A stretch of 64,000 nucleotides of DNA from Amphiscolops sp. MND2022 (taxonomy: Eukaryota), in NCBI GenBank assembly GCA_964187785.1, contig OZ076409.1, positions 48,734,001-48,798,000 of the forward strand. Direction: 5' to 3'. Below are positions 16,971-62,353 of this stretch, one piece after another. The position numbers were made by a program, and so were the translations under genes. Every line of letters begins with the position of its first letter. Position 1 is the stretch's first letter. Below the pieces are notes generated by a model. That model searched no databases, had not been told where the DNA came from, and saw only the letters and a program-made list of their open reading frames with translations.

Positions 16971-17690
16971 CATTACGATACACGTACCGGTAAGCTGCAT
17001 TTCAGTCAAGCAGCGTAATCTGTGTAATCCGTAAAATGGTCATTCAGCGTAAGTTAGTCAAGACGGTCTATGCTTCAACGGTGTAGCTGTGTCAACGCGC
17101 GTAATGGAAAATAGTGTAAGCTAGTCAAAACACGTAGTTAGTGAAAAGTGGAAGTTAGTCCAAAAATACTCTTTTTCGTAATTCAGTCAAAACTTTGACT
17201 AACTTCCGCTTTTTGCAAATTGCATATCGCTATACTTGCAATAAGTGGAAGTTAGTCAAAGTTTTGACAAACTTACACCATGTTTATATGCATTCAAAAC
17301 TCAGTGTTCATTTTAATTCCAATTCATACCACAGCATCGTAAACCAGTCAAAGTAAACAACGATTCAATAAATAATTAGTTATCATTACTGAGCTCCACC
17401 GTGCATAGTACGTATAAACTGCATTCAATGCAAGTTGCACACGTGAACACGTGTGTTTCATCCACGCATTTACGTGCAAATAAAATACCTTGTAGCTTCT
17501 AATTAGTACAATTGATTGATCTGTCAACGATCTGTTTCCTATTTTAAAACATAATTTCAAAGCAGCCCTCATTAATAGTTGCCTAACTATTTTTAATTTT
17601 GGTCCCTGTCGTGAGCACAGTCACCGGAATGATTGGATAACTTGTTATTTTGGTCTGGGTATTTTGAGCCAGGGTATTGGCAAGGATCTA

Positions 17691-17917
17691 TTTTGATCCC
17701 TGTCGTGAGCAACATCAAGAAAAAAATTGTAACAAATAGTCTATACGAAGTTGAAACTTTATCAAACCGAAAACAGTAGTTTATGGAATACCGATCTTGA
17801 ATTATTGAACTAAAAACGAAGTTTGGACCATGTGCCTTATTCTCCCTCAGATAAATACTGTTTCTTATCCAACAACATCCCCCCATCCAAGTCTTCCCAA
17901 ACAAGTGAAAGTAGGTC
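17691..17917 (+). repeat. ~226-bp direct repeat, copy 1 (copy 2 at 50517-50741; partial copy at 47147-47197)
   Basis: ORF-track peptides 17593-17919 and 50486-50767 are near-identical; DNA compared by eye. Confidence 0.93.
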
Positions 17918-18928
17918 ACTATTCCAATATGAGATCCAAATGTGCCTCACCCCCCTTAGATAAAAACCGTTTCTTAATTGCTTGTTGTTAATTAATTGCT
18001 TAGTCAAATAAATGAATGGTTTTTTAAAGAAGTAAAGAAGTAAATTCAATTGGTCAAATGGAAAAGAGAATGAGAGAATTGATTTCAAAAATTGAATTAC
18101 TTTGTATCATGGTTAAGCATTAAAAGCATTGAATAACGCCACGTGACATATACGTCACGTTACATATACGGTACATGTATGTTTTAAAAGTTTATGAATG
18201 TGTGCAAAGCAGCGGCAAAATGGGGATGTTGGCGCGGTCGATAAGTCCGTGGGATGTGACTGTTGGTACCACAGGATCGATCCCAGCCATTATCACACTG
18301 GCTAGGTGAATCGATGCACACAACTCTGACAAAGATTTCCTCCATATTTGGCGTCTCATTTCGCAGAATATTCCACATTGAAGGTATCAACACCGCTGAA
18401 ACATCCTTTTTGATGAGAGGAACTCCAAGGTGTGTCCTTGTTCTGTGCCGCAACTTGCGCAAGTTGAACTTTGTGTCCCCCGACTTTTTGTGACCAGACC
18501 TTGGTAAGTAATGATTGCAATGATATTCATACTGAAAATACGTTATCTTTACGGCGTTTGGTTCTAAGTGAACAATTGCAAATTTTGCAATGATTTTTCA
18601 ATAATAAAATTTTGTTTCGAAGACTGAATTCAACTGCAATTTGAAATAATCATTAAGCATAATCATTCAATAAGTATTGCAGTTATATTTCACTGATTTA
18701 TTTATTACCAAGGTTTGGTGGTGACTCAAAGCAAACCACTGAGACAAATTCCCTCCATATTGATTTATCAAAAGACACATGTCTTGTTCCGCTTTCCAAT
18801 CCCACATTGAAGGTATCATCACCGCTGGAACATCCTTGTTGATGAAAGGAATTGTTCAATCCTGGTTCATATCAAATGAAAGTATTCTTCTTTCTTCTTT
18901 CGAAACTCTTGAATGTAAATTCCCTCCA

Positions 18929-19551
18929 TGATCTTTTCTGTTAATCCCCCCCACAGTAAGGGCGGAAATTTTAATTCCCCACCACTATCCAGGGGTGTGA
19001 AATATTGTACTGGTTATTCTATTGTAGCTCACAATAACTTATTTTTATTGCGTGCGCACAAAAACAAATAATTGTTTCAATAACTTGAATTATTTAAAGC
19101 AAACATAAATTATTGATCAACATCATCAACAATTATTGCTTATCAACGACAGAATTTGCGCTTCCACGTTAACTGGGGTCGTTTTCTTGGATAATCGGTA
19201 AAAACGGCACGAACGACACTAAATCGCATTGTATCGATCTGCGCTGTATGCGCGGCGATTCAGACATTAAATTATTGAGCCAATGAAAACAATTATTGTT
19301 GCAATCAAACAAATAATTGCTATTGAATTTTTGCCTAAAAAAATAATTTTATTGTATTTATTGAAAATTATTTATCAATAAATTACTTATTTTACACCCC
19401 TGCCACTATCAGCGATGAGTTTCAGTTGCAGTTAGAGCTATTAAATACTGCAATTTGATTGGTTGTTACTATTAATTCAGTGATAATTTCACTTGACCGC
19501 TTAACTGGGGGGGAAATTAAATTGGTGGGGGGGAATTAACAGAAAAGATCC
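18929..19551. mobile_element. Merlin-like MITE containing a nested hAT MITE
   Basis: TIR (G)GATCTTTTCTGTTAAT.CCCCC; 8-bp TSD TCCCTCCA at 18921-18928 and 19552-19559. Confidence 0.75.
18990..19402. mobile_element. hAT-type MITE
   Basis: TIR CAGGGGTGT; perfect 8-bp TSD CCACTATC at 18982-18989 and 19403-19410. Confidence 0.88.
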
Positions 19552-19824
19552 TCCCTCCATATTAATTCAGCAAAGAGCACGTCTTGTTCCGCTTTCCAAT
19601 GGTACAAAAATCCCACATTGAAGGTATCAACACCGCTGTAACATCCTTGTTGATGAGAGGAACTCTTGAATGTAAACTTCCTTTAAAAGTTTAGACTGGT
19701 CCGATTAACTGTTTAAACTGATTGATTACGCAAAATTAGTGTGAAGAATGTTTGTATCTCAAATTGAGATTCTCAATTCCAAACTCTCACTTTGAAAAAA
19801 ATTAAATTGATGGTTTCTAGTTTG

Positions 19825-20295
19825 GGACCATGTGATCTATGCCCCCCCCAAAAACTGCGGCGGGGGGAAAATAATAAAGTAGGTTCAAATACTAGTTTTA
19901 AGCGAATTAATTATGTCGACATAACATTTTTAAATAGTCAAATACCATTATGTCGACATCGTTGCGTTGAAATTTTAGTCCGATAAAATAATTGATGTCG
20001 ACATAATCATATCTTTTACATTGATTGACAGTTAAAATCAATCATTATTCTTTGAAATGTGCTTCCAAACGGACATGCTTCTTTATTTACAAAACTACGA
20101 ACTTTGCATTCAGCATTTAAAAAATTTGGGTCATTTGCCACGAAGTTTGAATTCACGCGTTTAGTAATATTTGTAAGCATATCAACTTGTTTTATTCATT
20201 CAATAATTAATATACTTGTGAAAAAGCCGTTTTCGTTTGGGGGGGGAATTCCTAACAAGGTGTATATGGGGGGGGGGGAATAGATCACATGGTCC
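19825..20295. mobile_element. Merlin-like MITE inserted in a long palindrome
   Basis: TIR GGACCATGTGATCTAT; perfect 8-bp TSD CTAGTTTG at 19817-19824 and 20296-20303. Confidence 0.85.
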
Positions 20296-22458: not shown

Positions 22459-24203
22459 TTAGGAGCAATGTTCCTTTACGTGCATTCTATAATTTTCCAT
22501 TGTCTTGAAATTCACATTGGATACGAGTGTCGCGTGAACATAAATGTTGCTGTTGAAGTTTAGAGTTGATGTTTTGTCAACTTTGAATTTCAGGGACGTA
22601 ATGACAGCTGTTCCATCCGCAACTTTGTCCCATTCGTTGCCCAATATGTGGTCCCATGCTGATGTTGAAAAAGGGCCGTCGTCTTCTTTTATGGAGAATG
22701 TCACTGGGCCATTTGTGACACCGAACGCGTGAATCGTCACATCAGTGCAAGGGGCAAAATCTTGCTTGATGTCTTTGACTCTGCTGCCTCCACTGAGGGA
22801 ATTCATCAGCAAGTTCTTCAGGTTAGAATATGCCCAATACACTAACGCATGGTCGTCGTATAACGGCGCGCCAGGTGCGTTTTCAACTGCTCCCAGTCTT
22901 TTTTTCCGGAGATAACTTACAGGGACTGTTGCGTTAAAGGAAGGATCGTCCTGTTTTTCGACTTCTACGAGAAGTTTCGTCTTTAAATAGTAAATAGAAT
23001 TAATCTTCCAATCGCAGCCCAAAATTTCAACAATGTCTCCCTTGATGACGACTCCGGTGCTGATGGGGACACAAACTAGTTCTTTTCGTTCAAGTGGGGT
23101 ACTTTTGAAACTCTGGCAAGGTCCACCAATGGTGATGGCCTGGGATGGTATTGCATCAGGATTACCGAATAATTTATCGTAGTCACTATTCCAAAGTTGA
23201 AAAAATATTAGAAAAATGATTGAAAAGTACTACAACTAACCCATTGAACCTATTTTGGTTGGTGATATGCGAATGATAGATATTTTTGCCAAAATTGAGA
23301 ACTCAATTCGCTTCGGAAAAACTGAGGATAAAGCACTTCGGAAACTTTTCCTCGTAGTATTGTCAAAAACATTTATGTATTCTACAAAAAATTCAAATCA
23401 ACTGTACGTGCTTTTTCTCGGGAGGCTGCCAACAACTTGCAACGTTAAACTTGCAATCATTCAACCCTCATAGTCTAGCTAAAAAATAGTTGTACCTCTG
23501 TTAAAAAAATATTGAAGTAGTATTTTTGGTAAGCCTGCTTTACATCAATTTTAGTCTTCTTTTTAGGCATCTTGGCGGGGATCGTGGCCTCTATTCGGCT
23601 GGTCACCAACACGGTCTTTTTGTCGCATCTTGAAGTAACGTGTTCTTCGTCAGATTCATCCGAGGACTCAGAGTCCTCGGGTTCTTCGAATTTCACTTTT
23701 TTGAAAACGGATGCTGCCTTTTGTGACAATTCGCATCGAAGCTGGTAGTATTTGATGGGGACCAAATTCACATTTTCCAGCTGTTCGTCGAAAAAAACGT
23801 TTTCTTCTATTGGTATCACAACTGGCGATATCAACATTTCTTTACGGAAGGGATCGTTTTTCATTACGAAACCTTCTTCGATGTCCCCTATGTGTCGGAC
23901 GCCGTCTTTAGCATGGGCCAGTGTGTAATGAACTTTATCGTTTCTAACACGTTTTTCTTTCATGTAGCCCAGAACATCAAGGCTCAGTGTCAGTTCAACG
24001 CTACGGCTGTAGCTTGGAATTGGCGTTTCGTTCTTTCGGATGGGCCATTTCTCTGGAAAGTCATGAAATTTTGGGGGTGTTCTAACGACTCCTGCTGCAT
24101 GTTTTGAGTTGTAATCCAACCATTTGACTTTCGCCTGGAAACAAAAACTTTTTAAAATGTAACTCATTGAACAAAACAGTAGTGATATTTCTGAAAGCAA
24201 CAA
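22459..24203 (-). CDS. Orphan, probably spliced cargo gene(s) of unknown function
   Basis: ORFs 23475-24203 and 22459-23022 (the latter open upstream to ~23190) are GC-richer than their flanks and protein-like; no family recognised. Confidence 0.45.
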
Positions 24204-25027
24204 ATGGCAAGTCTGAAAATCGAATATCTCAAAAACAGCAGCGATTTCTGAAAAATTATGAGGATGAAAGTTTCTTAGATATTTATATGTTTATTTGAAG
24301 AATATAGGATGAAAATTTAATAGCTCATGAGTTCGGTGAAATTCGGTGACGTAGGCTGATCGCCAAAGTCCACATTCTTCCTCGAAACATTGCAAGAGTT
24401 CTCCGATTTTGAAATTTTTCGAGAATGTCTACATTGTCTGTTTCGCACTCGGTTCAAGACTCGGTACTAGTAGTGGGTTTAAGAGGACTAAATTCAGTGT
24501 CTTTGTAGTGAAATGAGACTAATATTTTGTTGCTTTGGGCAAGCTAAGTTAGCAAAAAGACTTCAACTTGAACTGACTTCAACAAAAAATAGAATAACTT
24601 CAACTTAAACTTGTCACAGCCACAAAACCAAATTGGGTTAAATTGTTCCAGAATAATATGCCGGCCCGCGGGCGTTAATTTGAACCAATGTGGTCAAAAC
24701 TTAGATTTTCGGATAATCAGTTGAATTGCACAATGGAAAAATTAGTCTATTTAATGATGCTATTCATTACTATCCAATTCATAGTAATGAATGATGCCTC
24801 CTATGATGGGGATGACCATCATTACAAGGCCCACTTCATCCAATATTCAATCTTGGTTGAAACCTAAACCACAAAACCAGATTGGGTTAAATTGTTCCAG
24901 AGTATTTTGCCGGCCCGGAGGCGTTAATTTGAACTTGACTTTCGAATAATGATAATTATTAAGTGATTAGATAATGATGCCCCGTCCTGGCTGACTTCAA
25001 GTCACGCTGATAAGTCACGCTTTACGT

Positions 25028-25092: not shown

Positions 25093-25254
25093 ACATCGTA
25101 AAATCGAAAAGGGAATAAGTTTTTGAATTCATCATTTGAAATCAATTCCTCGTCAAGTTCAGACCTCAATTTTATTCAAACTTCTCAACTATATTGTTGC
25201 AACAACCAGTTTACTAATCTCTTGAATTCGAGAATCAAACTGAAATTTTCCAAA

Positions 25255-28751
<3,497 letters not shown>

Positions 28752-30529
28752 AGCTCTGGCCCTTTTAAATTCTGGCCTTTTTATAAAATGGCGCGTTTGT
28801 ACATTTTCTAGAGAATGGCGCTTGTCAATTGTCACTACTACTACTGGCGATATCCAAATACTTGGCGATTATTAATACTACTACTACTGGCGATATTTGA
28901 ATTTTGGCGATTATCAATCAGCTAGCATCAAAGTTTGGAAACGTCTAAGGAATAACGTCTAAAGGTGTTCCGGGAATAACGTCCAGAGTAATAACGTCTG
29001 AAGTTCGATGTTTCAAGATACTCAATAAGCATGACATTGCTTTAGATGTTATTCCCGTTTAGCTTTCAGACGTAATTGCGTAGACGTTCCAGCTTTTCCA
29101 TCAAAATCATGAGGATTCAAATGAAAACGTCCAAGGAATAACGTCTAAATTTGTTCCGTAAATAACGTCTCAAGTGATAACGTCTAAAATTCCATGTTTT
29201 AGAGATATTGAATAAGCATGAAATAGCTTTAGACATTTTTCCGTTTTGCATTAAGACGTTTTTCCTTGGACGTTAAAGCTTCTCCGTCAAAAGCATGAAA
29301 AGGTATCTGAGTAGATTTATTCTGATTGAAAGTGAAGATATAGGAATCATATGAATGGGGGATTAACTGAAATCACTGAATTCTTTTTATTGAATGAAAG
29401 TGGAGAAATGGTAATCACATGAAATGGGAACTAAAATGAAATGGGAGTCACGTGGAAACAATGAATTCTTTTCATTGAATGAAAGTGAAAACTTGGTATG
29501 ACATCAAATGGGAACTGAAAATCATATGAGATAGGAATCAATATGGGAATGGAATCGGAATCAATGAAAACACAATGAATGGTTAACAAACAAAACGAAA
29601 ATCAAATGTATTCTCATCACATGAGTCCAGATAAAACTATTGGGCATCATGGACGTAAATATGAACAATACGCAAACTTGATTTTATTGTAAATTCTAGT
29701 TATCATCTGTGGATCAAACTCAATTCCAGAATTTTTCAAGGTTCCAATGATCTCTTCTCGTGACATACCTTTCTGTACATGATAAAATAACTCTTGGGCC
29801 CGCTTCTCCTTCTCACATGGGTCCCGCTTTCTGTGACTCTTCAGAGATTTAATGAACTGTTCCCGTCGTGTGGGATAATTTGATGACTTCGAATAACTCT
29901 TCGGGTTCTCACCTCCGTCATCTCCGTCAAGTTCCTCATCGTCATCACTGGAGCTCCCTGGATGGAACTCAGAGCCACTGGAGTCTGACTGATTTGTTCG
30001 AGGTCGTTTACTGTATTGTAATTAATTTATAACGCACAGAGAAAAAACTCAAAACTGACGTGAAAAGTCAGAAGAAACAGTTTCTTATTTTGACGTTAAA
30101 AATTCGTAGACATGATTTCAATTTCCAACAAATTTGGCAAACTTAAACAAGAACGTACTCTGATTCGGCTGAAATTGCATTTGCCATGGTCTTAGTTTTA
30201 ATCAAACTCAGTCAACCTCATATTCAAACGGTCGTTTGTATTCATCTAGATTAGCGAAAATATGATCAAAAATTGTCTCATTTTCCAAAAATGTTGGAAA
30301 AATTTTCAACGTGAAGTGTATGGAATAAATTAATTACACAGTAGCTCTCTTTTTACGCAGTGGGACAATTTCATTGGATTCACAGGAGTGGGTAGAAGAC
30401 TTCAGTTCCCGTGGGGTTGAACATATTATTCTTCCTGCATGGCGGTGTTTCCGTTGGGGGTTTCCTGCATCTGAAGACGCAAGAGTTTTATCTTTCGATC
30501 CAGGTGTTCCAAGTTGTAATACATGTTTT

Positions 30530-30702
30530 CCATGCTTGGATCCCGCACTTCCAGACTTCGATGCTGGAGTTCCAACTGGTAATCCAGGACTTGCATGCTT
30601 GGATCCCGCACTTCCAGACTTCGATGCTGGAGTTCCAACTGGTAATCCACGACTTGCATGCTTGGATCCCGCACTTCCAGACTTCGATGCTGGAGTTCCA
30701 AC
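30530..30702. repeat. 60-bp coding tandem repeat, ~3 copies (GLPVGTPASKSGSAGSKHAS)
   Basis: Visible in the DNA and in ORF 30334-31185. Confidence 0.92.
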
Positions 30703-32799
30703 TTTTAATCCATGACTTCCAGTTTGTGTTTCAGATGTTTCACCAGAGGAGGCAAGATGCTTCCCAGCAAGGGGTGTTCTTGGAGTAGTTGAAATATTTT
30801 GAAGCGGGGTGATTTTGAAGCCCTCGTCATTTTCAACATTTTGCAGTTTTGATAATTCGCTTAAATAAGTATTAAGCACTTCTCGTCTGTCTTTCGGAAC
30901 GACGTAATTGGCCAGAGCAGTGGCCGCTGTGTGGCCGGTCTGCTGTAAGTGTGAGGTAAATAGGGAATCTTGGTAATTCTTCCTGTTATTATGGAAATGT
31001 GTGTCCCACATTTTACGAATTGCTGTGGCGTGGAAGTCTTTATTAGAAAGATTGGGATCGAATAATTCTGTGAGGACACTTTTTATGTTCTTTGCCATCG
31101 AATGTTCGTACTTGTTGTTGGAAAGACAAGATCTGGTTCTGTCGAAAACTCTTTGACAAAACGACGTTTTAGTCTCTTTAGCCATTTATGTTGGTCGTTT
31201 TCAATTACTATACTGACATCATGAAACCTCCCAGTTTTATGGCGGTCTGTTTTCATCACCCCGTTTTGTTTTATAGACTCGAAATCTTTCCAGGTGAGTT
31301 GTAGGAGTGGTCCTGCCCGACAGTTTAACATAAAGGAAAGCATAAGGAAGTTAAGAGCTGAAAGTTCTTTGTAATAGAGAACCTTCTCCTCGAGATCCTT
31401 GTTAAGGAAATCTTGGACCATGTTATTTAGTCTCTGGACTTCGTCTAGACTAGGGACCTTTGCATAAAGTTCCTTTGATTTACGTCTTTTTTCCTTTTGG
31501 GATCCAATTAGGTATCGGCAGCGGCACTCGTGGAGTATTTTCTCCCAGGGATATTTCTTGAATCCGGGGTATCGGTCTCCGGTATGTAATTCCAAGTATC
31601 GGAAGAATTTACGTAGTTTAAATAAATAATTGGATATCGTAACTCGTTTCAAAATGTGGTCTTGCATGAATTTACGAATACTGTTTGCCAATGCGGTGGT
31701 CTCGTTGAATTCTTTAGTTTCGTAGACAATGTATCCTAAAAATTGGCGAAGTGTGGAAGACATCGTGGACACGGACACAACATCGCCATCATCCATCAAC
31801 CCTTGACAATGGTTGTCAAACTGGATCACAATGTCCTCAAATGGTTTTTGCAGCTTCTCTCGCAGAGTCCTCAAAGCAAGTTGGATCTCAACTGGATATA
31901 ACTTCTCGTCGCATCTGTTGAATATTCTCTCTAATTTCTGATGCTTTGGATGACTGCCTCGAAAGCTCATTCGTTTTAAGCAAGTTGTACATTGGAAGCA
32001 TCTTTTTGTTTTCATTGTCGAATGACAACTCAATATGAATGATTTCACTTTAGGATCCTAGTTCAGTTTGTGTGCGTTCGAAAGGTGGTCGCGCATTTTT
32101 TTCAGCTTTTTTTTACACACCACACATTCCTCAATTTCTGGTCTTTTTGCTTTGTTTGAAGTTTTAACTGTTCTATCTTCCTCGAGTTCATCATCGACAT
32201 CGGATTTTTCCGTTGCGATTGAATCTGTGGACTCGTGATCGGAGACAATTTCTCGAAAGGAAATGCTGGACGTATCCCCATCTCCATTCGAGGCGGAACC
32301 AATTTCACTTCGTGGTGAATTTCTTCGAAAGTGATTTTCTGAGGAAGTGGATCTTGACAGACCTTGAAGAAACGATGAAGCATTGCACTTATGGAGTTTT
32401 CCTACTTGCAAGTTATCTGTGTTGTAGAAGCACCAGCGGCAAACAAAATTGGCTCGGTGTTGCTCTTTAACATGCTTCACAAGGATTGATCTACCTATAG
32501 AAGTGCTCATAAATTTTTCAACACAATGAGGGCAAGTGAGAGGCTCACTACTGTTTTTTGTTATTTTGGCTTTTCTCGACCGACTAAACGACCGATGACG
32601 AAACATTTTGGAAGAGCACTTTTGCTTATGTTGCGATGAATCATGCGACATGAAACCGCAGAAGCACACACTGCATACAAAAGGAAGTTCGGGGTGCTTG
32701 GAGCGCACATGGTGGATCATGTATCTTCGAACGATTCTTTCAGGGCAATGTTTGCAAGGCATTCCAATTGACCTCTGATGTCCTTCAAGGGCAGTTTCT

Positions 32800-35730: not shown

Positions 35731-36760
35731 AACTTGAAGTGTAATCATTAGTGAAGATGATCTTAGTACAGTAGCGTGATTAAAAAAAATGCCCGGCCTG
35801 CCTCTACACTGAGCGTTATCATAATTGATCGATTAAGCTATGATCAACTTTTAAAAATGCATGTTTGCTCAATTTCAACTGATTATATATTTTCAACACT
35901 TTCAAGTGATATCATATTTCAACATATTTTCAACTAATAACAACTAATTTTCAAATAGTTTTTTCTCCACCGAAGACAGTATTTTTCTTCCTTACATGAT
36001 GATGATACGTATGATACTAGTGGAGTCTCATAAATTTAGAAATGTTTTCAGGACAACCAAAGAAGTTTTTTTTGAATTTTTGAATTACGTTTCGAGTCAC
36101 TTGGTTTTTTCTCTGGGGTTAACGCTTTATCGCATAACGAGACAACCCGGTAAAATAGGTTTCAGGCACGCAGCTGTATGATCTCGGACATTTCAAAAAG
36201 TCTGTCGGAAGTTTGCAATTTGTTTTTTCTTCTTCTACCGTGACGGTCACTTCTGGTGGCTATCATAACTTTTGAAATTGTTTTCAAAATCATTAAGCCA
36301 GTATCATCGTTTTTGTGATTTGTTTCTGGTTTCTTGCTTAAACAGGTGTTGTATTTCAGATCGAAATGATACAAAAACCAATCATCACTTATGCTGGCAT
36401 CAATTACGTGAAACTCATATTCCTGAACGTCTTGTTCCCGAATGTGTTCCTGCTGGAAAGCAATGACTGTCTTCTTCCCAATGATCGCAGGAAGGCTACA
36501 GATTTCCTCAAGAAGCATTTAAAAGGTTTATTTTCTTTCCTTTTTTAATCAAAAACATACTATGTTTTTTATCAAAAACATATGTTTTTATCAAAAACAT
36601 ACATACTACGTTTTGGACAATTACGTTTACGATCTCTAGTTAGTAACTAGAGATCGTAAACGTAATTGTCCAAAACGTGGTTGTGAGATGTAAGGAACGC
36701 ACTTAAGCATAGCATTGTAGTTGATCGTTCGTGGCACGTTTTGATTCATGATTGTTGCAG

Positions 36761-39708
36761 GACTGAACGTAAACTTCTCTGATGTATACAAGCCCCATGG
36801 ATTCAAAGAAAGGTGTCCTTTGTTGCGCGAAGACGTATTCGATTTATTGATAATATCTGCACCTCCATCATTAATTCCCTGGACGACTAAAAGAGTTGGC
36901 TATATACGACAACTTTTCCCTTCGTTGCCCATTCCAGGCTCAACCTCTTTTTTAACAATTGACACTATTTTTTCACAACAGTCATTGGAAACAGGCGTTT
37001 CGCTGCAGAATTTTTGGAGCTCTTCTTTGAAGACTATATCAGAATCAGAAATTGCATTGGGTCATTTTATTGAAACTCTCAAGCAGTTTTTCACAAGTCA
37101 AACTTTGAAAATCAAGAAAAAAAACACCTTAGTGCATAAACTTCTTCATCTATTTCTGCCAAACTTGTTTTGCCTTCAAAGGGAAGACATTCAAATGGAG
37201 ATTCAATGCCTACTTACTCTCAGTAATCCTCAGGATCTTTTAGTCAAAATACGTCGACTTATACAATGCCCTTTCATCAAATCCACCATTCTCCCTTCAA
37301 GACGTGAACTTCAAGCAATCACAAATAAATTGAACGAAGATTTCAGATCAATACTTACTCCCAGAAGAACCCCCACTGGGTTCCGTGTTAATCTTGTTAC
37401 ATTTGTCAGATTCGTTGCCTGCAATTTGTATAACAAGACCAGCTTAGTCGGCTTGAGAGTCGACATTTATGGTGATGCAATGTCTCGGGGGAAAAAAGAC
37501 GTCGTACGAATGGCCTTCCGAATTTTGCAAAGCGGCATCGAAACTGAGCAATCCTCAACCCATGTCTTCACGTTTGCTGTGTTTGAGGTGAGTCGTTCAA
37601 GTTTTAATCTGAAAATTCGGAACTTGATTTCTTTTGTGAGCTACATCAAAATGTTTATTGAGAATTTTGGTCCCTGTTGTGAGCTACACTTAATAGTTTA
37701 GTGGTAACGCAAATCTAAATTTGGTCCCTGTCGTGAGTTACACTTAAATGATTACTAAGTAGTTGGAAAACCAATTTGGTCCGTCTTGAGCAGCACTCAA
37801 ATGTTTTGTTGATATAATTCTAAATTTTTCTCTGTTGTGAGAAACTGGAAGTTGAAATATGAAATTTTGGAATGTTTCCCAGGGTAAAGATGTGCGAATC
37901 AACCTGGAATACAATCTCGCCATGTTAGAAGTGCTTGGACGCCCTGGATGGCTATACAACGAAACAAAGGCCTTGCATGATGAAGGTGCTATACTGAGTT
38001 GTTCGGGTGATTCACCATTCCAACTGCGTCTTTTAAAAAGTGTTAGCAGTGATGTCTCTTGTCTGTCAAAGATGTGTCTTTATGTCAGTGATCCTGCAGA
38101 TATTTCGAATCCACCACTGAAACAGAGAAAAAAGACACCGCTGAATATAAGAGAGAAATGGAAGGAAGGGGGGTGATTCTTCCGTCAACTGTCGATTATG
38201 CTACTGGCCGAAGAACAGAACTGATCATTGACATCAACGAATGCATCCCAAAAGACTCTCTCATTTTTCTCAAATCCACTTTCAGTACATGCCCTGATTT
38301 GCTGCATATGGTTGTCCGTTCAGTCGAAAGTGACTTGAAGTTGCATGTGGACTCGATGTTGCTGTTGAAAGACCATGCAGAAATATGTAGACTCGAATGT
38401 AACATAACGGAACGAAATGTGAAACCGCCGAGATTCAGGTTTGAGATCGTTGAAAAACTCTGCAAGGCTGTATCTCTCAGTTTCAGAGACGCCGAAGTTA
38501 TAATTTCCGACTGCAACAGAATCAGCGACTATGGCCGATCAGACTGCCCAATTTTTGAAGGTGTATGTTCATTCGAAACACCTCATGTCTACAAAGCTGA
38601 TCAAACAACCTCTACAACGTCTTATAACGTATTGATATCATTGGTTGATGGGTTGGAGACATCTTTCACAAAAGGAGTGGGTATTTCTGTTCGGAAACTG
38701 GCTGACCTCCAATTCCAATCTCTTTACCAGTTACTTGATTTGCTTCGACAGAGAGAATTCAAAGATATTCCAAAGTGTAAAGATCTCTATGAGATTTATT
38801 ACCAGTCAACTTTATGTCTTTTCGGTGATCGTGCGTTGACGCCATACAAATTGAAACTGGATATTTTACTCAGACTTTTTGAGAAGGGTGAGCTTCTGTC
38901 TCCATTTTATTACATGACAGAAGGAACTGAAAAAAGCCACCACATGGCAGCCAAAGACTACAATACGAAGACAATGCGTGATGGTGGCAATGATGCTTGC
39001 AACATGTCATCCAGTTATCTCGATATTCAGTTTTCCTTCTACCGTGCAATTGATTTATGTTCTTCAAAGTCTTCGACACTTGAATCTTACCGGAAGTTGT
39101 ATGGAAAAACCGACGTGACAAAGTCGTATCTTGAAATTTGCTGTGAACCCATTCCAGAACCTGAACTTGACTATCTTAGAACTGAAGACATGTTTAGAGG
39201 TATGCACTTTGTCATTCTTGGAACATATGGTCACCTGAAAGAAACTCAAGCGAGTCTTGAGAAGAAGATCACTGAAAATGGAGGAAATGTTGTTTCCAAT
39301 GTAGACATCATCAACAGAAGCAAGCTGAATTTTTTGAGCCATCACTATTGCATTTTACCAAATCGAAATTGTATCGACGCATTCATTAAAGGTCAACAAG
39401 GTAAAGAAAAAGCTGCAACGAAGGCGCTTTCCAATACGATACTCGGTAACTGGATTTACTTGAACGCTGAATTTGTAATCGCCTGTGTACAGAAGAAGTC
39501 CTTGATTGATCCCAAAGGTTATGTTTTTGAAGTAGATGAGTCTGTGAGAGCCAAATTCAAAACGATGAAGTACATATCTATGGCCCCACAATTACAACGT
39601 CAATCAAACCCCCTACGACATGGTTCATTAACTTACCTCACAGCAATGCGGAAGTACAAGAACGCACTAAAAAAGGCCACCTTGAAGAGAAAACTAGACG
39701 ACGTTTAA
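36761..39708 (+). CDS. RAG1/Transib-like DDE transposase with a C-terminal BRCT domain (spliced; 5' exons uncertain)
   Basis: Candidate triad IYGDAM / CSGDSP / TEGTEKSH. DLLH and TPYKLK motifs parallel RAG1 DALH and TNYFHK..SEGNESGN. BRCT: FRGMHFVILG..ITENGGNV..LNAEFVIACV. Phase-0 intron 37588-37882; one frameshift in a G-run near 38170. Confidence 0.68.
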
Positions 39709-40537: not shown

Positions 40538-43500
40538 ATGGCAACACTGCCGACCACGCCATCAACGTCTCGTCGAAAGACACCAGAGAAAGTCCCATGT
40601 GGCCAAGGTTCGATAAACGATTTTTTTTTGTGATCAAGCTGTAACGTAATCAAGCTGTAACTTTTTTCACGGAAAAGTTTAATCTGACATATGGCATTCC
40701 TTTTAGGCACTTGTGACGTTGTGGACAAGCTGTCCAACATTCTACGCCACCGCAAAGTCTGTCCCCGAATGCCACGAGAGCAGTTCAAGCTCATGGAGAG
40801 AACGTGCCAGCTCTGCGGCCAGATCATTTCCGCCAAAAAACTGCTGAAGAAGCACTACAATACAAAGTATTGTAAGGAGCAGCAAAAGCGGAAAGCAGAA
40901 GGCCTGCCTACCCGAATGTACCAGTACGGTTAGTCATTACAATGTATGTAAAAAATTGATCGACTTGTAACATTTTGAAAAGTCCAGTTTATCATGCCCG
41001 AAACGATAAGGGAAACTCAATGATTTTGAAAAAAAAACTAGGTCTCAAACAAAAAGGGTGTTTTCATTCATGTAACTTCTATGTTACAGCAGCTGCAAAA
41101 GGCTTGACGCGGAGGCCTAACTTATGCTACGGCAGAGGTTGTGGCAAGTCATATGTTTACCCTTATGACTTGCGCGTGCACCTTTTGAAGAATCCTCAAT
41201 GCCAGGAAGGAGCGAATGTGAGTGCCTGTCCTATTTTTTTCCTCTTTAAGAACACATATTGAATGATTTGATTGACCAATTGATTCTCGAAACGCCGTGT
41301 TTTACACGGTGAAAATGTGACTGGAACTCCGAATGAGTCATTTTATCGTGGCAACTGTTTAGGCTGCAGTATCTTTGGGCTCCGATTCGTCTAGCAACAC
41401 TGACGAGCGATTCAGGCCAGAAGATTTCAACCACATTCCTTCTGATGTGTTTGGATCTGATGGATTTTTCAAGTTCGCGATGGAAGTGCCCCTCGACTAC
41501 AAGTTTCCTGTAGCTCAATGGGAAGGCAACGTTGACGACCATGTCGTCAAATTCAATTCCCTGATGAGACACAGTGTGCCTCTGTTGTGGCGTGGAGGTG
41601 TCAACCATTGCCATGGTTTGAAGCTGCCTCAAGTGGAAGAAATCGCTTTCACTGAAGTTGTCCAAGAGCTTCTAGTCCCCCAGAAGCTACAAGCAAGTGC
41701 AGCAACCATCAATGTCAAGTCGGCAAAAATTGGAGAAGTAAGTCTTTGGTTGAATTACTTTCAATTTGAAGCTTGTATTTTTCGTAAAATATCTGGAACA
41801 ACTGCAATTTGATCCCTGTCGTGAGCTCATTTTCAAACTTGGACAAGTCTTTGGTAGAATTACTTTCAATTTGAAGCTTGTATTTTTCGTAAAATATCTG
41901 GAACAACTGCAATTTGATCCCTGTCGTGAGCTCATTTTCCAACTTGGACAAGTCTTTGGTAGAATTACTTTCAATTTGAAGCTTGTATTTTTCGTAAAAA
42001 AATATCTGGAACAACTGCAATTTGATCCCTGTCGTGAGCTCATTTTCCAACTTGGACAAGTTGAACTTGTCGAACAACTGCATTTGAACTATTCTAGCGA
42101 GTAGAAAGTTGTCCGTCTTATTCCCGTCTTAGTCAATTTATGATCATTTCATTTCAGAGTCGTGACCTCTGTCTCGACGATTTCAAGCAGGAGCTCATCA
42201 ACGCCGACAGAAGCAGCGTTTACTATCCTTTAAACGCTATAGACATCGCCATGCAGCAAAAGGTAAACATCATTGAATGAGCTCCTTTGATTGAAAACGC
42301 AAATCCACTGAAAAATGACTTTTCCTTTTCTGTTTTTCTTCAACCCCCTGTTTACTAGTAGTTGCGTACAAATTGGACTTTGAGGATGCACATTGTTTTG
42401 AAACAACTTCAACTTATATTGATTTTTTTTGTCTTTTCAGTCCATCTACAGCGTGCCAACGATGATAAAAAAGTCGTCAGTCACACCCTTGTGGACGAGC
42501 TGGTCAGTAAGTCAGCAGAACCGTTCTCAGTAGCGACTTCATACTACTTGCTGATCTCCAACGATGGTTGTCAAACAACTTGGCACACGGACTTCAGTTC
42601 AACATCTGTCTTTTATACAGTCTTGACTGGGTCCAAGACCTTCTTTCTGGTTGCGCCAACTGAAAACAACATGGAGTTGTTCAATGCCTGGTCCAAACAA
42701 GAACGCGACGACATGTAAGTTGAATTTTTTCACCAAGGAATTTCAGCTTTTGCGTTCATCTATTTTTGTATTTTTTTTGCATCATTTTGCATCACGGGCC
42801 ATCATTTCCGTACGTGTTTTCAATGTATTTGCGAAATTTTCAACTTTCAATGCACTATATTGTTTTTGCCAACAGTTTTCGTTTTAGGCCAACATTTTTT
42901 GGATGCCACAAAAGACTGGAGGGGGGTTGCCTCAGGGTTACTCTTAATCCGGGCGACGTTTTCGCCATGCCGTCTCAGTACATCCATACAGTCCTCACAA
43001 GTGGAGACTCTGTGGCAGTAGGGACGAATTTCCTTTCAGAAGGTCATTTGAACCAGATCATGAAGGCGATCATTGAAGAAGACTCCGTCAGGGAGCATGA
43101 GAAGTTTCCGGGCATGTTGGAAATGCTAGCTATTTTGATGCTCAAAGCATCAGAGAGATGCATGATAACTCCGGACTTCCTTCGACTTCACAGGGTCATT
43201 GAGAATCGATATCAAGAAAGTGAAGCTGTTGCTGTGAGTTGTATTTTTTAGTTCACAATCGTTTCGAATCAAACTAAAAGATCGAATTAAGTATTTGTAT
43301 AATGAAGCCGTGTTGTGACTCACAACAGGGACCAAAACTAAAATTGGTAATCATCATGAATAATGTTGATGATGACGTTGTGGCTCACGACAGGGACCAA
43401 AATTAAAGGTGGTAATGATTAATTCGTGAGCCACAACGTTATCATCGACATTATTTGTTGATGATCAACAAAGTTGATCAAATAGCTTAGTGAGTTATCA

Positions 43501-44147
43501 TGAGTTTTGTTTCAGATTTGCCCCGAATTCAGCAAGGAGAGACTCGTTTACAATATTTGCTCGCGCAAAGACTTCGTAAACGATGTTTGTGTCACTGCTT
43601 TCACGGAAACGGCCTCAAAAAAGGCATATCTTCTTTGCCCCAAGCCTTGCTTCAGAAGGAGGAACTGGTATACGAACGAGGACGGCGTGAAGGTCCCGAA
43701 GGAAGCAATTTCTGAGGAGCGCCTCACTTTCTTGTGCCGAAGACCTGATGTTGACGAGCCGAATCGTGATGTTTTAATCAGCTATGAGGAAGCCATCACG
43801 TATGTTCACCCGCGACCGTCACAAACTGTCAGAGGTTTGCACAAAATGCCGAAAAGAAAAACCCTCGTTCAAGACCGTGGTAAGTTTGCTTATTTTAGTT
43901 ACATCCTGGTTGTTTCGTCTTAATATACATAGTGGTAATGTAAGTGATAATATTCAACTCAAAACTGGTCACCTGGTTGAACATCCGTAAGGCTTACATT
44001 TGATTTTCGTATTTCCTAAAAAGACTTCAAAATGAAATTAATGGAGTGGTAATCGAATTCAATGTTTTTGTTTCAGAATTCAGACCATCTACTGATCGTT
44101 ACGTTGCTTCGATCATGAGCCACCATGTCCCTGCATACAGCTTGTAG
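40538..44147 (+). CDS. Nine-exon zinc-finger + JmjC (KDM2/PHF8-like) histone demethylase
   Basis: Exons 40538-40607, 40707-40928, 41090-41217, 41363-41737, 42158-42262, 42441-42714, 42888-43233, 43516-43879 and 44077-44147. JmjC TTWHTDFSSTSVFY..GSKTF..PGD..MPSQYIHTVLT..DSVAVGTNFL keeps HxD..H and K. N-terminal C2H2/C2HC fingers. One probable frameshift near 42480. Confidence 0.85.
41738..42061 (+). repeat. Intronic 105-108-bp tandem repeat, 3 copies, each carrying the dispersed motif
   Basis: GATCCCTGTCGTGAGC at 41811, 41916 and 42024. Confidence 0.95.
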
Positions 44148-44315
44148 TTGCGTACAGACTGAGTTGTGCTTAAGAAGTTCTTGATCAATGTTAACTTAAC
44201 ATGTTGAACTTTCTTGTCTCCGAGTTATTTGTTGTGCTCAGTAAATTGTACACTGTGGCTCGGTATAAACTTGGAGCTTGAAAAACTGCTCTGGATTTTT
44301 CGAATGACCGTCAAC

Positions 44316-44757: not shown

Positions 44758-47713
44758 CCGTCAACAACCGGTATTTTTTGTTCATAGCAAATTCAGCAAA
44801 ACATTCAGCAAATTATTACGGCAAAGTCCAATTACCTCATAGTCTAGTTAAAATTTTTATTTCAACTAATAACTTCATGGTAAAAAAGTGTTGTTGACCA
44901 TTATTAAATTATTAGGAACTATTCATTCAATAAGTTAATGTGTACAATTTACCTTCGATTTATAGTGCATTCAAAGTTTGTACAGCTTTGATCGTTTGTA
45001 AGTTTGTAACGTTCTGAATTGTATCAACTGTGTTTTGGACAATTACTGTCGGAAATGTCGAGTAGTTGTTCCCAAAAAAAGAGGGACATCTACCGTCGGA
45101 AATATCGGGTGGTTGTTTCCATAAAAATTTATCAAATACCGTCAAAATCAATCATTGATGGCCGCCGGAAATCATCGGGTCATCGGAAGGGAGTTTCCAA
45201 TTAACTTCGCCTTTGTGCTCCCTTGCATCGTATGTTTTCTCTTCCAGTACAAGCCGAGTATGAATAACAGAAGCAAAAGCCTCTTTGTCAAAGTTAAACT
45301 AATGTAAACTAGAAGAAAATTTAAGAATAGTTTCCTTCTGACAATTTTACAAATTTTCAATGGATTCCGAAAAAATCAAGCCTGAAAAAGCTCGGGGGAG
45401 GTTTTCCTAATCACAGTACTAGAGCTCTCAACCAATGAAAAGAACATGTGGGCCTCAATTAGCCAATGATATTTATTCGTTCGTTCCGCCGGCGGCTGCT
45501 GTTTTTCAAAAGTTGATAAAAACACTTGAAGTTGACTCAAGTTTGTTATGTTTGCTATAGACCAAGACTCAAGTTATTTCAATTATTCTTGACTCAGCAG
45601 CTCGGAGAAGCAACATAAATACAGGTACCTTTTGATCCCCGTCGTGAGCAAATATAAAACAGAGTTGCTAAACCATATTTTAAGTTAAGTACCAGCTCTG
45701 AGAATCTGTCCCTGTTGTCAACTACAGTATCCTTCTTTTCTTACGATGTGTTTTCAGAAAGAAAACAACTTTCATTGAATATTGTATTTTGAATATAAAA
45801 ATAGCACCAGTTTTATAATGGAATTTATGAACATTATAAAATCACAAAAAAAATTGAAAATAAAAAATTTATCTCTTGTAGAGCAAATAAATAATGAGTT
45901 TTGAAACTTTAAAGTTTCAAAAATAGTGGAAAAGTCGTTGAAATCATTTCAACGAAACTTTGAGTCCCTCGAAGTTCAGGTTCAGACATTATGAAGTTCA
46001 GGTACCCCAGGTTCAGTCATTATTTTAGCCTGAGCAGGCATCCTTGTTTCCTGCAGAGTGGGCACTTCACCCAAAGGGCACGATCAGTGCTTTCCCTGTG
46101 AATCACAGTGATCAAAATTTTCGAACGATATCTAGAATGAGTTTGTTTTGTAACCACGTGTGTACCAAAAATTTCAGGAATACAAAAATGTAAAGGACAC
46201 GCCTCAGAAAATTGATCAGTGAAAATTATCAGAAAGGAAAAGTGAAAACAGCTTCAATAACAATTTTTCAAAGAAAAGTTTTGTGAAACTTACCTCTCAA
46301 GCACTTTGATCCATGCTTGACGGCACTGATTGCATATCGCGTGTTTATCATGGAGAATCCAAATACGCGAAAAGATCTTCTCTCCACAGACAGCGCAAAG
46401 CATTTCCAGTTGGTTAATGTGTTTCAGGTGGTCAATAAGTACAATGATTTTTAAAAAGATATATCAGTCTGGTCACACGGTTGTTTGGAGATCGAATGGC
46501 CAACAATCGGCCCGGGACATATAGAACACATCGTACGAAAGATTTGAACTTTATTTTGTCAGTATCTTGTTTCTATGTACGAACAACTTGCTTTGTTTCA
46601 TGACTTGACAACTTGCAAGTCCTTTTAATCCTTTCACTAAGTAACCACCTAGTTAATTTATAACCTCTGTACCTGTAACAAATAACCGTCTCCACTTATT
46701 ATTTGGTTTAGTAAACCAACGCGGTACTGCGGTAGTGCCACTTTCATTCATTTCAAAATAAGATGATAGTCAAGATGATTCTTTCACATCAGTTATTATG
46801 TCGATATAATTGTATTTGTACTTTGCGACCCTGTAGTACCACCTACTAGTGTTAGTCAGAATTTTAAGTGTTTTTTCATGAAGTAAAATACTTTGTTCAC
46901 ATGAAAAGTTTCAATGGTTTCAAAAAATGAAATAATCAATACTTTACAGAATTGAATGACGTACATATGTATGTTTACAAAGTTTAGGAATTAACAAATT
47001 TCATTTATTTATTTTTACTAAAAAATAAATAACGTACATATGTCATTTTGATCCCTGTCGTGAGCAACATCAGTTACTGCTCACCACTACTAAAAAAACC
47101 ACTAAAAAAACCACTACTAAAAAAATTAATAACGTACATATGTGGTTTTGATCCCTGTCGTGAGCAACATCAAGTTGTAACAAATAGTCTATACGAATCT
47201 AAAACTCTGTTTGAGTCTAAAACTCTCTATCAATTTGAAAATCTGAAATGTCTATTACCAAATCTCCAAGTACTTAAACGATTATTTAACTACCACTGCA
47301 GTAAATTTAGAATTGAGGCGTGTTTAATAAGGACAACTGCCAGTGAAGGTGCCACAGTGAAGGTTTGTCGAAAACTGCTGAGAAGTTCTTACACGATTAA
47401 TTAATTACCACTGCAGAAAAGGGTAGATTTGAGACATTTTAATTATGACTATTCAAATTTTGTCGATAACCGCAGCAAAGTCGTTACACGATTAACTAAT
47501 TACAATTACGAATTGAGGCTTTCTAATAATGACTTCTGAATTTCTGTCGAAAAAAGTCGATTCATTCAAACCTTTTGCATCATACTGTCAACTTGCTTTC
47601 AATTCTATTAATATTGTCAACCTTCTTCTTTCGCAATCATCAACTTCTGTTAATCTTAATTTCATAATCAGTCAATCAGATACTTCTTTCTCTCGCAATC
47701 ATCAATATCTATC

Positions 47714-48136
47714 ATGTTCGATCCCGCAGCAATGCCAATCAGGTCGTGTATTCGTCCGATAGATGAACTGATCTCGAACTGTGGACCACCACACAGAAAA
47801 AACGTGCGTTTTGCGGACTCAACCACCGTGGTGACCAATCAACTTGAAACATCTCCGACACATCCGAGAGCTTGGAGGATCAAAAGAAGCGCACCCATTC
47901 CTGACAACCCACTCCCAACAACTCCACCCACTCTAATCTCTGGGATCAAAAAAGCAGTAGTTCCGGGAACAACAGTGAGGTTCTCTTTCATAGAAAGAGC
48001 TTTATCACCGAATGGAGAAGTATCAGAGTCCGTCATTTCTTTCAATGACTCGGAAACCAATCATTGTGATGAATACTGGAAACCTGGGGCTCTCGACGAC
48101 AAGCCGTATATAATGAACTGCCGAACAACAAGATAG
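47714..48136 (+). CDS. Orphan ORF (140 aa, Pro/Thr-rich)
   Basis: ATG-initiated and GC-richer than its flanks; no family recognised. Confidence 0.35.
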   Translation: MFDPAAMPIRSCIRPIDELISNCGPPHRKNVRFADSTTVVTNQLETSPTHPRAWRIKRSAPIPDNPLPTTPPTLISGIKKAVVPGTTVRFSFIERALSPNGEVSESVISFNDSETNHCDEYWKPGALDDKPYIMNCRTTR

Positions 48137-48875
48137 AATTTAAAGTTACTATTCTGCTCTTCTAGTACAGTTGTCACAACTGTACTAGAAGAGCAGAATA
48201 GTACAATAGTGTAAGAAATAAACTGAACCTTTTTTTGTAAGAAAAGAATTGGACCAAAACAAAACTTGCTCTGATTTTTGCTACCATCCAAGTTATTTAA
48301 AAATAAATTAAACAAACATTCTAGAGTTTTGTTGGGCACTTGAAATGTAGGTTTGCAAATAATGAAAAAACTTCCTAATTTAATTTTTCATTGATTGTTT
48401 TTACTACTGAATTGGCATATGGGTCATCAGTTTGGACAATTTTGTAACATTGGCACATAATTTGGAACTTTTGTTTGTTTGGCAGGTACTTCTCCATTTG
48501 CTGAAGCCATTCAACTATTTTACATCAAGATAATTGGTATTATATAGTTTTGGAAAGGGGTTTTCTATTATTTAGTTTCATTAACAATCTTAATACGTGG
48601 GACACAGCTATTTTTCGCAAAGATTGGGGATTATGTTTTCGGTTATAGACTTTTAACCGATAAAATTAATATCAAGAGAATCTGCTAATTAAGGTGATTA
48701 TACCCATTATCTTAGACATTCAATTTGTCCTTCCAGTCCCTTAACATCATGGGTAAAATAGAGAATGAACGAAATTCCCATGTAAAATGCTAGCTCTGTT
48801 TACATGCAGTCCAAATTATTTCTTACAAATAAGGGTTCAGTTCTTTTCTTACACTATTGTAACTTTAAATGTAAC

Positions 48876-49528
48876 CAGGGCTACCGAAAAATTAATGTAA
48901 TAAATGTTTCTGTAATAAATAAATGTAATAAATGTTAATAATAAATAATTTATTTCTAGTATATTTCCATCCAGATAATTTATTTCTGTCATTCGAAAAA
49001 TACCATAATTTATTTCGGAATTTTCCATTATTTTAGAAATAAAATGAAGCTACAAAGCAAATAAAGGCAGACGCTACCACCAAGGCAGCTTGCCGTATGT
49101 AGGCTATTGTAAATTTTATTTCATTTTTATTCCATCAATTTCTAACATATGCGAACGGCTCTTTAGCCGTGCAAAACTGCCCCAGGGATACTTGAGACAT
49201 CAAAATATAGCATCAAAACATAGAGATATCAAAACAAAAATGAGCAAGCTTCAAGGTGCATTGTGGTCAAGCTATGATAGCTTGACCCCAATGCACCTTG
49301 AAGCTTGCTTATTTTTGTTTATTAACAAATCTTTGTGGAATGTAAATGTTATTAATGAAGTTATAAATATGGCTGACAATTGAAATTATTTCATATAATT
49401 TAAAATTATGGCCATAATTTATTTTTTTGCTGAGAAAATATAGTTATTTATGGGCAATAAATCTAAAATAAATCTATAAATATAATAAAAATAATGAAAA
49501 AAACTAAAATAAATTTTCGGTAGCCCTG
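48876..49528 (+). mobile_element. Non-autonomous hAT element with a transposase dimerisation-domain remnant
   Basis: TIR CAGGGCTACCGAAAA; 8-bp TSD AATGTAAC; peptide PSISNICERLFSRAK..LTPMHLEACLFLFIN. Confidence 0.9.
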
Positions 49529-49554
49529 AATGTAACATTGGTTCTAAAATCTGA

Positions 49555-50400
49555 ATGTGGACGAAACAGTTTGGCTTCAGTATCTCAGTATCGGATGCGA
49601 ATTTTACCTCCGGTGTAAAATTCGCATCCGATACTGAGATACTGAAGCCAAACTGTTTCGTCCAATCAGATTTTAGAACGAACCAACGAGTCGTCATCTG
49701 GAAGGACAAATTTGATGATCAACTTGCAAAGCGAACAAAAGCTCGGTCGTCTCGTTACGAACTTCTAGACCTATTACACAGTCTGAAATCCAACCTGTCA
49801 AACTTGAAAGCGAATGGTCATTGTGTGAACAACTTCTTGACTCAAGGACGACCTTCGGTGGACGAAATTGAAGATCTTTCCTACCCATTTGAAGAATGGA
49901 TGGAGGAAATTGACCCCTTGGTTTCGGCTCAGTTTAATGCCCAAAACTTCGCAACCCTCAGTGAGGAGGATTTGAAGCAAGAACAAAACAAATGCCTGGA
50001 ACTTCAAGAAGGGGTTCAAGCTCAGAGAATCTCAATTGGCAAGTTACAGAAGAATATGTTGATGATTGAGGCCTTGTATTAAACCATTCAAAACTCACAG
50101 ATTCAGAACAGCACACAAGATAACGAATCAGTGGCTAGTTTGAGCGACCGCGTGATCGGAATCATGAACAGATACAACGCCATTTCTTCCAACGTGGAGG
50201 AAAGAGCGCAACAACTGTATTTCGACATAGAGGAGTCCTTACAGGTATTGAGATTGTGATTGTTATGTATCCGAAGAAACTGAAAGAACAGCTGAAGAAT
50301 CTATCGCAAGTTAGAACAAATCTGGAGGACACCGGTGCCGAAATTGACAAGATCAAAGCCAACGCTGAGCAAATGTTGAAGAGTAATCCTCACAATCGAA
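49555..50400 (+). CDS. Orphan coiled-coil-like ORF(s); 5' part scrambled by a palindrome
   Basis: ORFs 49555-50082 and 50256-50465 are rich in L/E/K/Q. Confidence 0.35.
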
Positions 50401-50516
50401 TTTATTATTTCAGAACAATATATTGTCAATTCATGATATTATTCATTTATTCAATAAAAAATTAATTGATATTTATTGATCTTATTCAATAAAAAATTAA
50501 TAACGTACATATGTGG

Positions 50517-50741
50517 TTTTGATCCCTGTCGTGAGCAACATCAAGAAAAGTTGTAACAAATAGTCTATACGAAGTTGAAACTTTATCAAACCGAAAACAG
50601 TAGTTTCTGGAATACCGATCTTGAATTATTGAACTAAAAACGAAGTTTGGACCATGTGCCTTATTCTCCCTCAGATAAATACTGTTTCTTATCCAACAAC
50701 ACATCCCCATCCAAGTCTTCCCAAACAAATGAAAGTAGGTC
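50517..50741 (+). repeat. ~226-bp direct repeat, copy 2
   Basis: Matches 17691-17917. Confidence 0.93.
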
Positions 50742-51172
50742 TCATAATGAAGGGGCGATTGCTTCATTGAGCTTGGTAATTTTGGTCCCTGTCGTGAGCA
50801 CTTCCTGTAGTCAGATTTACTGTTTATGCGATTTGATACTGTGTATGCGAATCAAGCACTGTAGTTATGAGTCGGCGTGTGTAGCTCACCAGTAACAACC
50901 CGTAATTACCCGAATTATGTGTAAATATGAGATGCACAGTGTAGTTAGTCAAATTGCTTAAACTAGTCATATGGTGTAAACTAGTCAAATACTGTACTGT
51001 CCAATGGTGAAACTAGTCAACGTACGAAGCTGTGTCAACTAGTGTAACGTCCTATCAATGCGCGTAATGTGTGACAAGTGTAAAACTTCCAAAAAAAATA
51101 TTCGCGCTCTGATTGGACAAAAATCGAACTAGCAGGATCCTGCTAGTTCATACCGGCATGTGTATCGTAATG

Positions 51173-62319: not shown

Positions 62320-62353
62320 CTCTTCTCTTGTCGATTGAACTCAGTTCCCAAAG

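Follow-up and report, generated by a model that had tools for sequence, protein, structure and literature searches.

A 64,000-nucleotide stretch of contig OZ076409.1 from Amphiscolops sp. MND2022 (assembly GCA_964187785.1, positions 48,734,001 to 48,798,000; referred to here as the window, with all coordinates counted from its first letter) contains, at positions 16971 to 51172, a copy of a large DNA transposon bounded by terminal inverted repeats (TIRs). The element encodes a predicted DDE transposase with a C-terminal BRCT domain, a SET-domain protein, a zinc-finger JmjC protein and a conserved orphan, and a short family-specific motif is dispersed through its introns, intergenic DNA and subterminal regions. 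We consider it probable that the element belongs to an unclassified DDE lineage, which transposes with 2-bp target duplications and keeps its own chromatin open by means of the cargo enzymes and the motif.

Boundaries, copies and sister families

The two TIRs, at 16971..16992 (forward strand, beginning 5'-CATTACG) and 51151..51172 (reverse strand), were delimited by inverted-end comparison and genome-wide matches. They form a 22-bp inverted pair with 20/22 bases identical, and give the element the termini 5'-CATTAC...GTAATG-3'. Copies were searched for in the source genome (1.07 Gb), where 40 of 1297 candidates were scored for the first 200 bases and 40 of 1119 for the last 273 bases (totals that are not to be taken as copy numbers), with identities of 99-100% and 96-100% respectively. 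The inverted ends described in the first-pass annotation, which was made from the window alone, therefore recur genome-wide.

Six further long copies that retain both ends align colinearly with the window copy (identity per segment ~85-99%, in most cases 94-98%); their lengths are 23.8-41.2 kb. Three copies that lack large insertions and deletions measure 27.0, 27.6 and 28.3 kb, and the true unit of this family, referred to as family A, is ~27 kb. The earlier description of one bounded element stands, but its size of 34.2 kb overstates the unit, because positions 28752-35660 are a separate insert in a (TAC)n tract, 6.9 kb long in the window copy. Among 25 two-ended copies of families A, B and Z, 21 are flanked by a 2-bp target duplication of varied sequence and one by a 3-bp duplication, while three, including the window copy, have none; a 5-bp duplication was found in 0/25. 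Transposase exon 2 was scored at 80 places in the genome, the window's own included, with 97-100% amino acid identity, and 76 of the 80 are free of stop codons. Short deletion derivatives retain the element ends. On these comparisons, family A is a high-copy, dispersed, TIR-bounded DNA transposon with very young copies.

The first-pass annotation had itself named three ways in which it could fail, namely ends belonging to independent short elements, single-copy host genes, and a protein lacking an RNase H fold. The first two are ruled out, as the ends bound one repeated unit with shared termini and the same gene order, and the element genes are multicopy; the fold is present in the structure model discussed below. 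A viral origin was also rejected, since no viral hallmark frame was seen.

The window copy itself is flanked by gt and ga. The flank on its right corresponds to that of a left end lying 45 kb farther upstream (ga, same satellite), the copy of which runs into an N stretch. Because both this flank and its dinucleotide fit the upstream left end, the window copy is probably recombined or mis-assembled. It is also frameshifted in transposase exon 2 and in the SET exon. Elsewhere, four clusters near 41.31, 71.18, 74.71 and 83.47 Mb of contig C1, in which motif hits recur with one and the same spacing over ~11 kb, suggest an amplified, internally deleted derivative. On contig C7 (near 15.02-15.05 Mb), most of the element seems to have been duplicated in tandem, as two transposase copies lie there at a distance of 25 kb and enclose no right end.

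Several sister families were found. In family B the transposase is 70% identical; its 10 scored matches are 88-95% identical to the B query, and the family has copies of 25.0 and 26.4 kb. Family B2, which is 88% identical to B, is 23.7 kb long. The transposase of family D is 71% identical, and its right end is not readable. That of family Z is 31% identical, with 62 matches listed, several of which have 1017-aa open frames; two family Z copies of 17,832 bp each are 99.94% identical and carry the duplications ta/ta and tc/tc, which indicates very recent movement. Copies of family C are rearranged and were left out of the motif and end analyses. The CATTAC start is common to the ends of families A, B, D and Z, and the SET gene, the zinc-finger JmjC gene and the orphan are all present in B, B2, D and Z, although their order differs. 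In 17 comparisons of cargo between families, the proportion of nonsynonymous differences (pN) is 0.23-0.37 and that of synonymous differences (pS) 0.62-0.97, the latter near or beyond saturation; a transposase row of 16 codons in the wrong frame was excluded. This shows four families keeping one cargo kit under purifying selection. The comparison of copies likewise shows, at the level of genome sequence, the mobility of a lineage whose TIR-bounded elements span 18-28 kb. Beside one family-B copy lie another SET gene and an orphan that is ~40% identical to the family Z orphan, which probably represent a further family.

Transposase and cargo genes

The transposase gene lies on the forward strand. 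Its first exon (36745..37587, GT donor at 37588) carries the first catalytic motif, DIYGD, and its second (37883..39708, with a frameshift near 38128-38173) carries SGD, DxxH, TPYKLK, ExxEKSHH and the BRCT domain (Pfam E 8e-5). We infer the splice because homologs are intronless. A search with the intact 617-aa exon-2 frame of another copy recovered 205 representatives (E up to 0.001), some of them full-length proteins, 845-1301 aa long and ~32-36% identical; a name lookup for 10 homolog clusters returned "hypothetical protein" only. When 44 aligned transposase sequences were searched against Pfam, BRCT alone was matched (23/44), and none of the 44 matched a transposase family. A PDB profile search with the alignment gave weak BRCT-type rows only, and of 54 pattern matches in viral contigs none could be confirmed as a transposase relative. 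In metagenomes, six short loci of 1.2-4.6 kb contain the transposase only, their length being insufficient for ends or cargo.

The fold was modelled on homolog P0015 (predicted local distance difference test, pLDDT, 86), which is 32% identical to the window protein. Foldseek ranked RAG1 first (E 3.8e-8), and structural comparison with RAG1 gave a Z score of 17.6 over 418 aligned residues (root-mean-square deviation, rmsd, 4.6), followed by BbRAGL (17.3), Transib (HzTransib) and P element (12.0 each), BRCT (11.0), ISCth4 (8.7) and Hermes (8.1). In the 44-row alignment the catalytic acidic residues are invariant (D202/D206, 19/19; D288, 30/30; E571, 40/40), as is the DxxH after the second D (D361, 37/37; H364, 38/38). 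There is no conserved CxxC after D288, and TPYKxK directly precedes the region of the catalytic E, at the place of the RAG1 His pair. In the model the D-D-E residues are located, in order, in the first strand, behind a later strand and where a helix begins, which resembles the RNase H triad. The core is thus predicted to be a RAG1-type DDE/RNase H domain with a large insertion domain, followed by BRCT at the C-terminus, consistent with the spliced DDE-like gene with BRCT and the RAG1 likeness proposed from the window.

The SET gene, also on the forward strand, comprises a conserved N-terminal domain (26295..27272) and a SET exon (27540..28501; frameshift near 27941 in the window copy). The SET domain (E 3e-10) is nearest to KMT5A/SET8 (KMT5A, E 6e-7), and of the KMT5A motifs, GRG, YH and DY are present in the SET domains of the elements, while the fourth, NH, is kept in Z and reads NY in A, B and C. 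By comparison with family C, in which the gene is in one frame and has a Pro-rich N-terminus, an open frame at 25102..25569 (forward strand) may be the first exon; homology of this frame outside family A was not detected. When homologs were sought with the 807-aa product of the SET gene, its own cluster alone was recovered among 8000 scored candidates. The first-pass annotation had called the product a dead tyrosine recombinase (YR) fused to SET, of which the SET part holds. For the N-terminal domain, sequence profiles gave no match to YR, and two nested YR frames scored against its profile (8/9 rows, a misaligned row being dropped) no better than 400 shuffles. A poor model of the protein (pLDDT 46.6) gave low Z scores to an integrase over the N-terminal region (5.6; 82 residues aligned, rmsd 3.2), topoisomerase IB (4.6) and MrpR (4.4), so that an inactive YR fold is possible and unproven. 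In three copies, on C2, C7 and C11, the SET gene intron contains a ~110-bp left-end-like piece at the position that corresponds to 27289 of the window.

The spliced zinc-finger and JmjC gene (40688..43923, forward strand) is KDM2/KDM7-like (JmjC, Pfam E 0.003; KDM2A, E 2e-10; PHF8, E 1e-9) and has an intact HxD...H triad. These Fe(II) ligands (HTD or HQD plus the distal H) are retained in families A, B, D and Z, and in family Z the finger and the start of JmjC lie in one frame. The zinc fingers vary between families, with 35-57% identity to those of A. The pairing of a histone writer with an eraser, also recognised in the first-pass annotation, is accordingly retained in the sister families, as judged from homology. 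The orphan gene (22459..24290, reverse strand) has two frames; the N-terminal part of its family-Z homolog resembles Tudor/Agenet clusters (ESM feature scores 0.82-0.87), a lead to a possible Tudor domain, and the second frame had no useful match in Pfam or PDB.

An expanded (TAC)n tract (28502..28751, forward strand) at the tail of the SET gene is a recurrent insertion site. In the window copy it is followed by the separate nested element (28752..35660, reverse strand), which encodes SET, zinc fingers and a YR with motifs R-K-HxxR-H-Y (read by eye), and has a short frame near 34694-35246 resembling a long interspersed nuclear element. This block was considered as cargo and rejected, as it is missing in 7/7 other stretches spanning the insertion site and occurs in separate copies at other places, predominantly in (TAC)n (5/6 left ends and 5/7 right ends). 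The second SET and the catalytically complete-looking YR belong to the nested element and not to the transposon family. The nested element is low-copy, has no clear TIR, and is possibly an undescribed microsatellite-targeting Crypton-like family. In a family-A copy on contig C1 (21241560-21282762) the same tract holds a different, ~9-kb YR-encoding element, and two more family-A copies carry other inserts there.

Dispersed motifs and their possible role

The family-A motif, TTTGRTCCCTGTCGTGAG, occurs in 20 copies between 17598 and 50798, on both strands and at subterminal, intergenic and intron positions. With up to 2 mismatches allowed, all 20 matches in the window fall within the element (0 expected from 100 shuffles) and none inside the nested insert, in agreement with the earlier observation of a single motif running throughout the interval. 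Its 20-base form has 1609 exact matches in the genome, vs 0 for a reversed control. Motifs of the three families are 14-20 bp long and each begin TTTTG, with 17-21 per copy in A, 32-33 in B (related to A but distinct) and 12 in Z. Cross-hits between the A and B motifs are 0 at 3 mismatches, and the Z motif has 0 matches in A, B and D. All three are placed near ends, between genes and in introns, frequently in tandem; they are paired near both ends in A and Z, and those of A and B lie in corresponding introns of the genes for the transposase, SET and JmjC. Within the coding mask defined by inter-family homology fall 0/20 A, 1/32 B and 0/12 Z motifs. This separate motif version in each sister family is the main mechanistic clue.

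We propose that the DDE transposase would excise the element at its TIRs and integrate it with a 2-bp stagger, as the ends, the duplications and the fold suggest, and that its BRCT domain would engage host repair. The cognate motif would be bound by a protein that the element encodes, the zinc fingers of JmjC being the likeliest candidate; the bound JmjC would then strip repressive histone methyl marks along the element, and SET would deposit an H4K20me1-type mark on it. As a result, only cognate copies would remain transcribable, in a manner similar to VANDAL/VANC and with the enzymes on board. We regard this anti-silencing route, from motif binding through demethylation to the SET mark, as about evenly poised between right and wrong. 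Somewhat below that, and tentatively, we place a wider claim, that of an unnamed, superfamily-level DDE lineage (RAG1-fold, zinc-free and BRCT-bearing) joined to a self-contained, sequence-addressed chromatin system with writer, eraser and possible reader, the tag of which diverges together with its binder.

Several observations weigh against this proposal. Family D has the full kit and none of the A, B or Z motifs, with 7-8 internal TIR-like copies instead, which makes the transposase a possible motif binder. In the SET domains of families A, B and C, the NH of KMT5A reads NY (NH is kept in Z), and SET activity is therefore uncertain. Together, the family D pattern and the NY change in three SETs oppose a simple version of targeting. 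Exon avoidance is not significant for the Z motif (P 0.14) and is expected of any non-coding repeat, tandem motif copies are not independent, and B and B2 have one motif in common. The substrate of a KDM2/7-like JmjC is not readable from sequence, and KDM2A removes H3K36me2. Further, the fold was computed on the homolog and not on the window protein.

The internal TIR-like copies of family D would also fit a different binder, in which the transposase or the N-terminal domain of the SET protein binds the internal motifs, as a TnpA-like activator or for end pairing, and the histone enzymes are recruited indirectly. The paired motifs close to either end of A and Z and the weak match of the SET N-terminus to YR-fold proteins are in line with this, as is the precedent that Spm TnpA binds clustered family-specific motifs and the AtMu1 transposase activates cognate copies, as outlined in the cited account (bioRxiv 10.64898/2026.08.24.746577). 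However, the A, B and Z motifs are unlike their TIRs and separate subterminal repeats, and many copies lie deep within introns, so we consider this alternative rather unlikely.

KMT5A-type SET and BRCT domains are both tied to DNA-damage pathways. The KMT5A-like SET and the occurrence of BRCT among the aligned transposases could therefore mean that the cargo targets host chromatin at donor or target sites, e.g., through H4K20 methylation that steers break repair with BRCT, or that it targets host genes. This would leave unexplained why homologous introns in three families hold motifs specific to each family, and appears improbable to us. Least credible by far is that the cargo was captured from the host and is carried passively, the motif having arisen as a side effect of hairpin or tandem amplification: the element does contain many long palindromes and tandem arrays, some with the motif, but the kit is retained across 31%-identical transposases despite saturated synonymous sites, the motifs have been replaced family-wide with equivalent positions kept, and the inter-family cargo pN/pS and conserved catalytic residues largely refute it.

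Other features of the window copy include near-perfect long hairpins with 28-57-bp arms, some with the motif, dispersed through the element (20478-20580, 21149-21253, 27307-27475, 36605-36681, 48147-48203, 49232-49320 and 49558-49664). Short AGTTAGTCAA-like repeats in the left subterminal region (17050..17290) are putative transposase sites. Next to them, 17598..17917 (forward strand) contains two motif copies and a 196-bp segment that is directly repeated at 50546-50741, and three open frames at 47660..50411 (forward strand) are present in family A only. The left flank (6543-16375) holds decayed frames of long terminal repeat retrotransposons. On the right, a 185-bp satellite begins at 51173, an 84-bp array lies at 53392, and a long BEL/Pao frame occupies 55915-62340. 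The spliceosomal introns mark the host as a eukaryote, and the BEL/Pao element suggests that it is an animal.

Relation to known systems

With RAG1, RAGL and Transib, the transposase shares its best fold matches, a long spacing from the second D to E, and CA ends. No RAG2-like frame was recognised in the element, in which no search aimed at RAG2 was made. Transib elements are described as 3-4 kb long, with 5-bp duplications and a CACAATG heptamer (PMC1131882, in the part cited). Unlike these, our elements are 18-28 kb long, make 2-bp duplications, have CATTAC ends, lack the zinc ligands by which Transib/CACTA-type enzymes are defined, and add BRCT. Of the RAG1/Transib-like assignment in the first-pass annotation, the RAG1-like fold is therefore kept, while Transib membership is rejected, given 2-bp rather than 5-bp duplications and CATTAC rather than TIRs of the CAC heptamer-spacer-nonamer type.

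In the passages cited here, the CMCT clade (EnSpm/CACTA, Mirage, Chapaev, Plavaka, ESTA and Lanisha) is defined by C(2)C and H(3-4)H motifs and has 5'-CA..TG-3' ends with 2-5-bp duplications; PlavakaB has CATCA..TGATG ends with 2-3-bp duplications, and fungal members of ~24 kb bear a TET/JBP epigenetic enzyme (PMC12730594). Cargo-bearing EnSpm elements of 16-20 kb are reported from a red alga (PMC6431247), and Lanisha was named in moss (PMC8245031), again in the parts cited. The termini and duplication length of our element fall within those of this clade, whereas its transposase has neither C(2)C nor H(3-4)H and its cargo consists of histone enzymes.

DxxH is given as the signature of the C/DxxH group (hAT, P, MuDR, Kolobok, Dada), within which Kolobok has TTAA duplications and RR..YY ends (PMC9587614, in the part cited). 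Our transposase shares the invariant DxxH and resembles the P transposase (Z 12.0) and Hermes (Z 8.1) in fold; Kolobok membership is rejected, as the signature is present but the TTAA duplication and the RR..YY ends are not. Duplications are 8 bp in P and 9 bp in MuDR. Those of hAT are usually 8 bp according to the cited passage (PMC12730594). Combining CMCT-like ends and duplications, a RAG1-like fold and the C/DxxH signature, the transposase fails a tested defining feature of Transib, CMCT and Kolobok alike. It would form a branch close to RAG1 but free of zinc ligands, linking ends of the CMCT type with the C/DxxH group, it appears to mobilise 18-28 kb naturally, and the lineage is possibly a new superfamily. 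No account of such an element was found in a literature search of titles and abstract openings, which did not cover Repbase, where an entry may exist.

Transposon-borne SET methyltransferases are also carried by HarbingerS and oomycete MuDR (cited in PMC12730594), which differ in transposase and host group and, in the account cited, come with no JmjC partner. As far as the cited passages describe, the motifs bound by VANC are family-specific and lie in introns and in intergenic and terminal DNA, and VANC lifts silencing from cognate copies (PMC5735166), and TnpA relies on host demethylases (bioRxiv 10.64898/2026.08.24.746577). Our elements share with VANDAL/VANC and Spm/TnpA, as so described, motifs that are family-specific, often tandem, and diverging between families in these same locations. 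They differ in that the motifs are 14-20 bp rather than 8-10 bp, histone enzymes are encoded on the element, and the host is probably an animal and not a plant. Counter-silencing by transposons in a sequence-specific manner is known from plants, and cargo of epigenetic enzymes from fungi and oomycetes. If our reading is correct, the present lineage would do in an animal what VANDAL anti-silencing does in plants, and would do so with catalytic histone enzymes. A methyltransferase and a demethylase in an active family, with three orthogonal motif sets, would then make the arms race between host and transposon directly testable, and natural address-plus-enzyme modules for epigenome editing would be conceivable.

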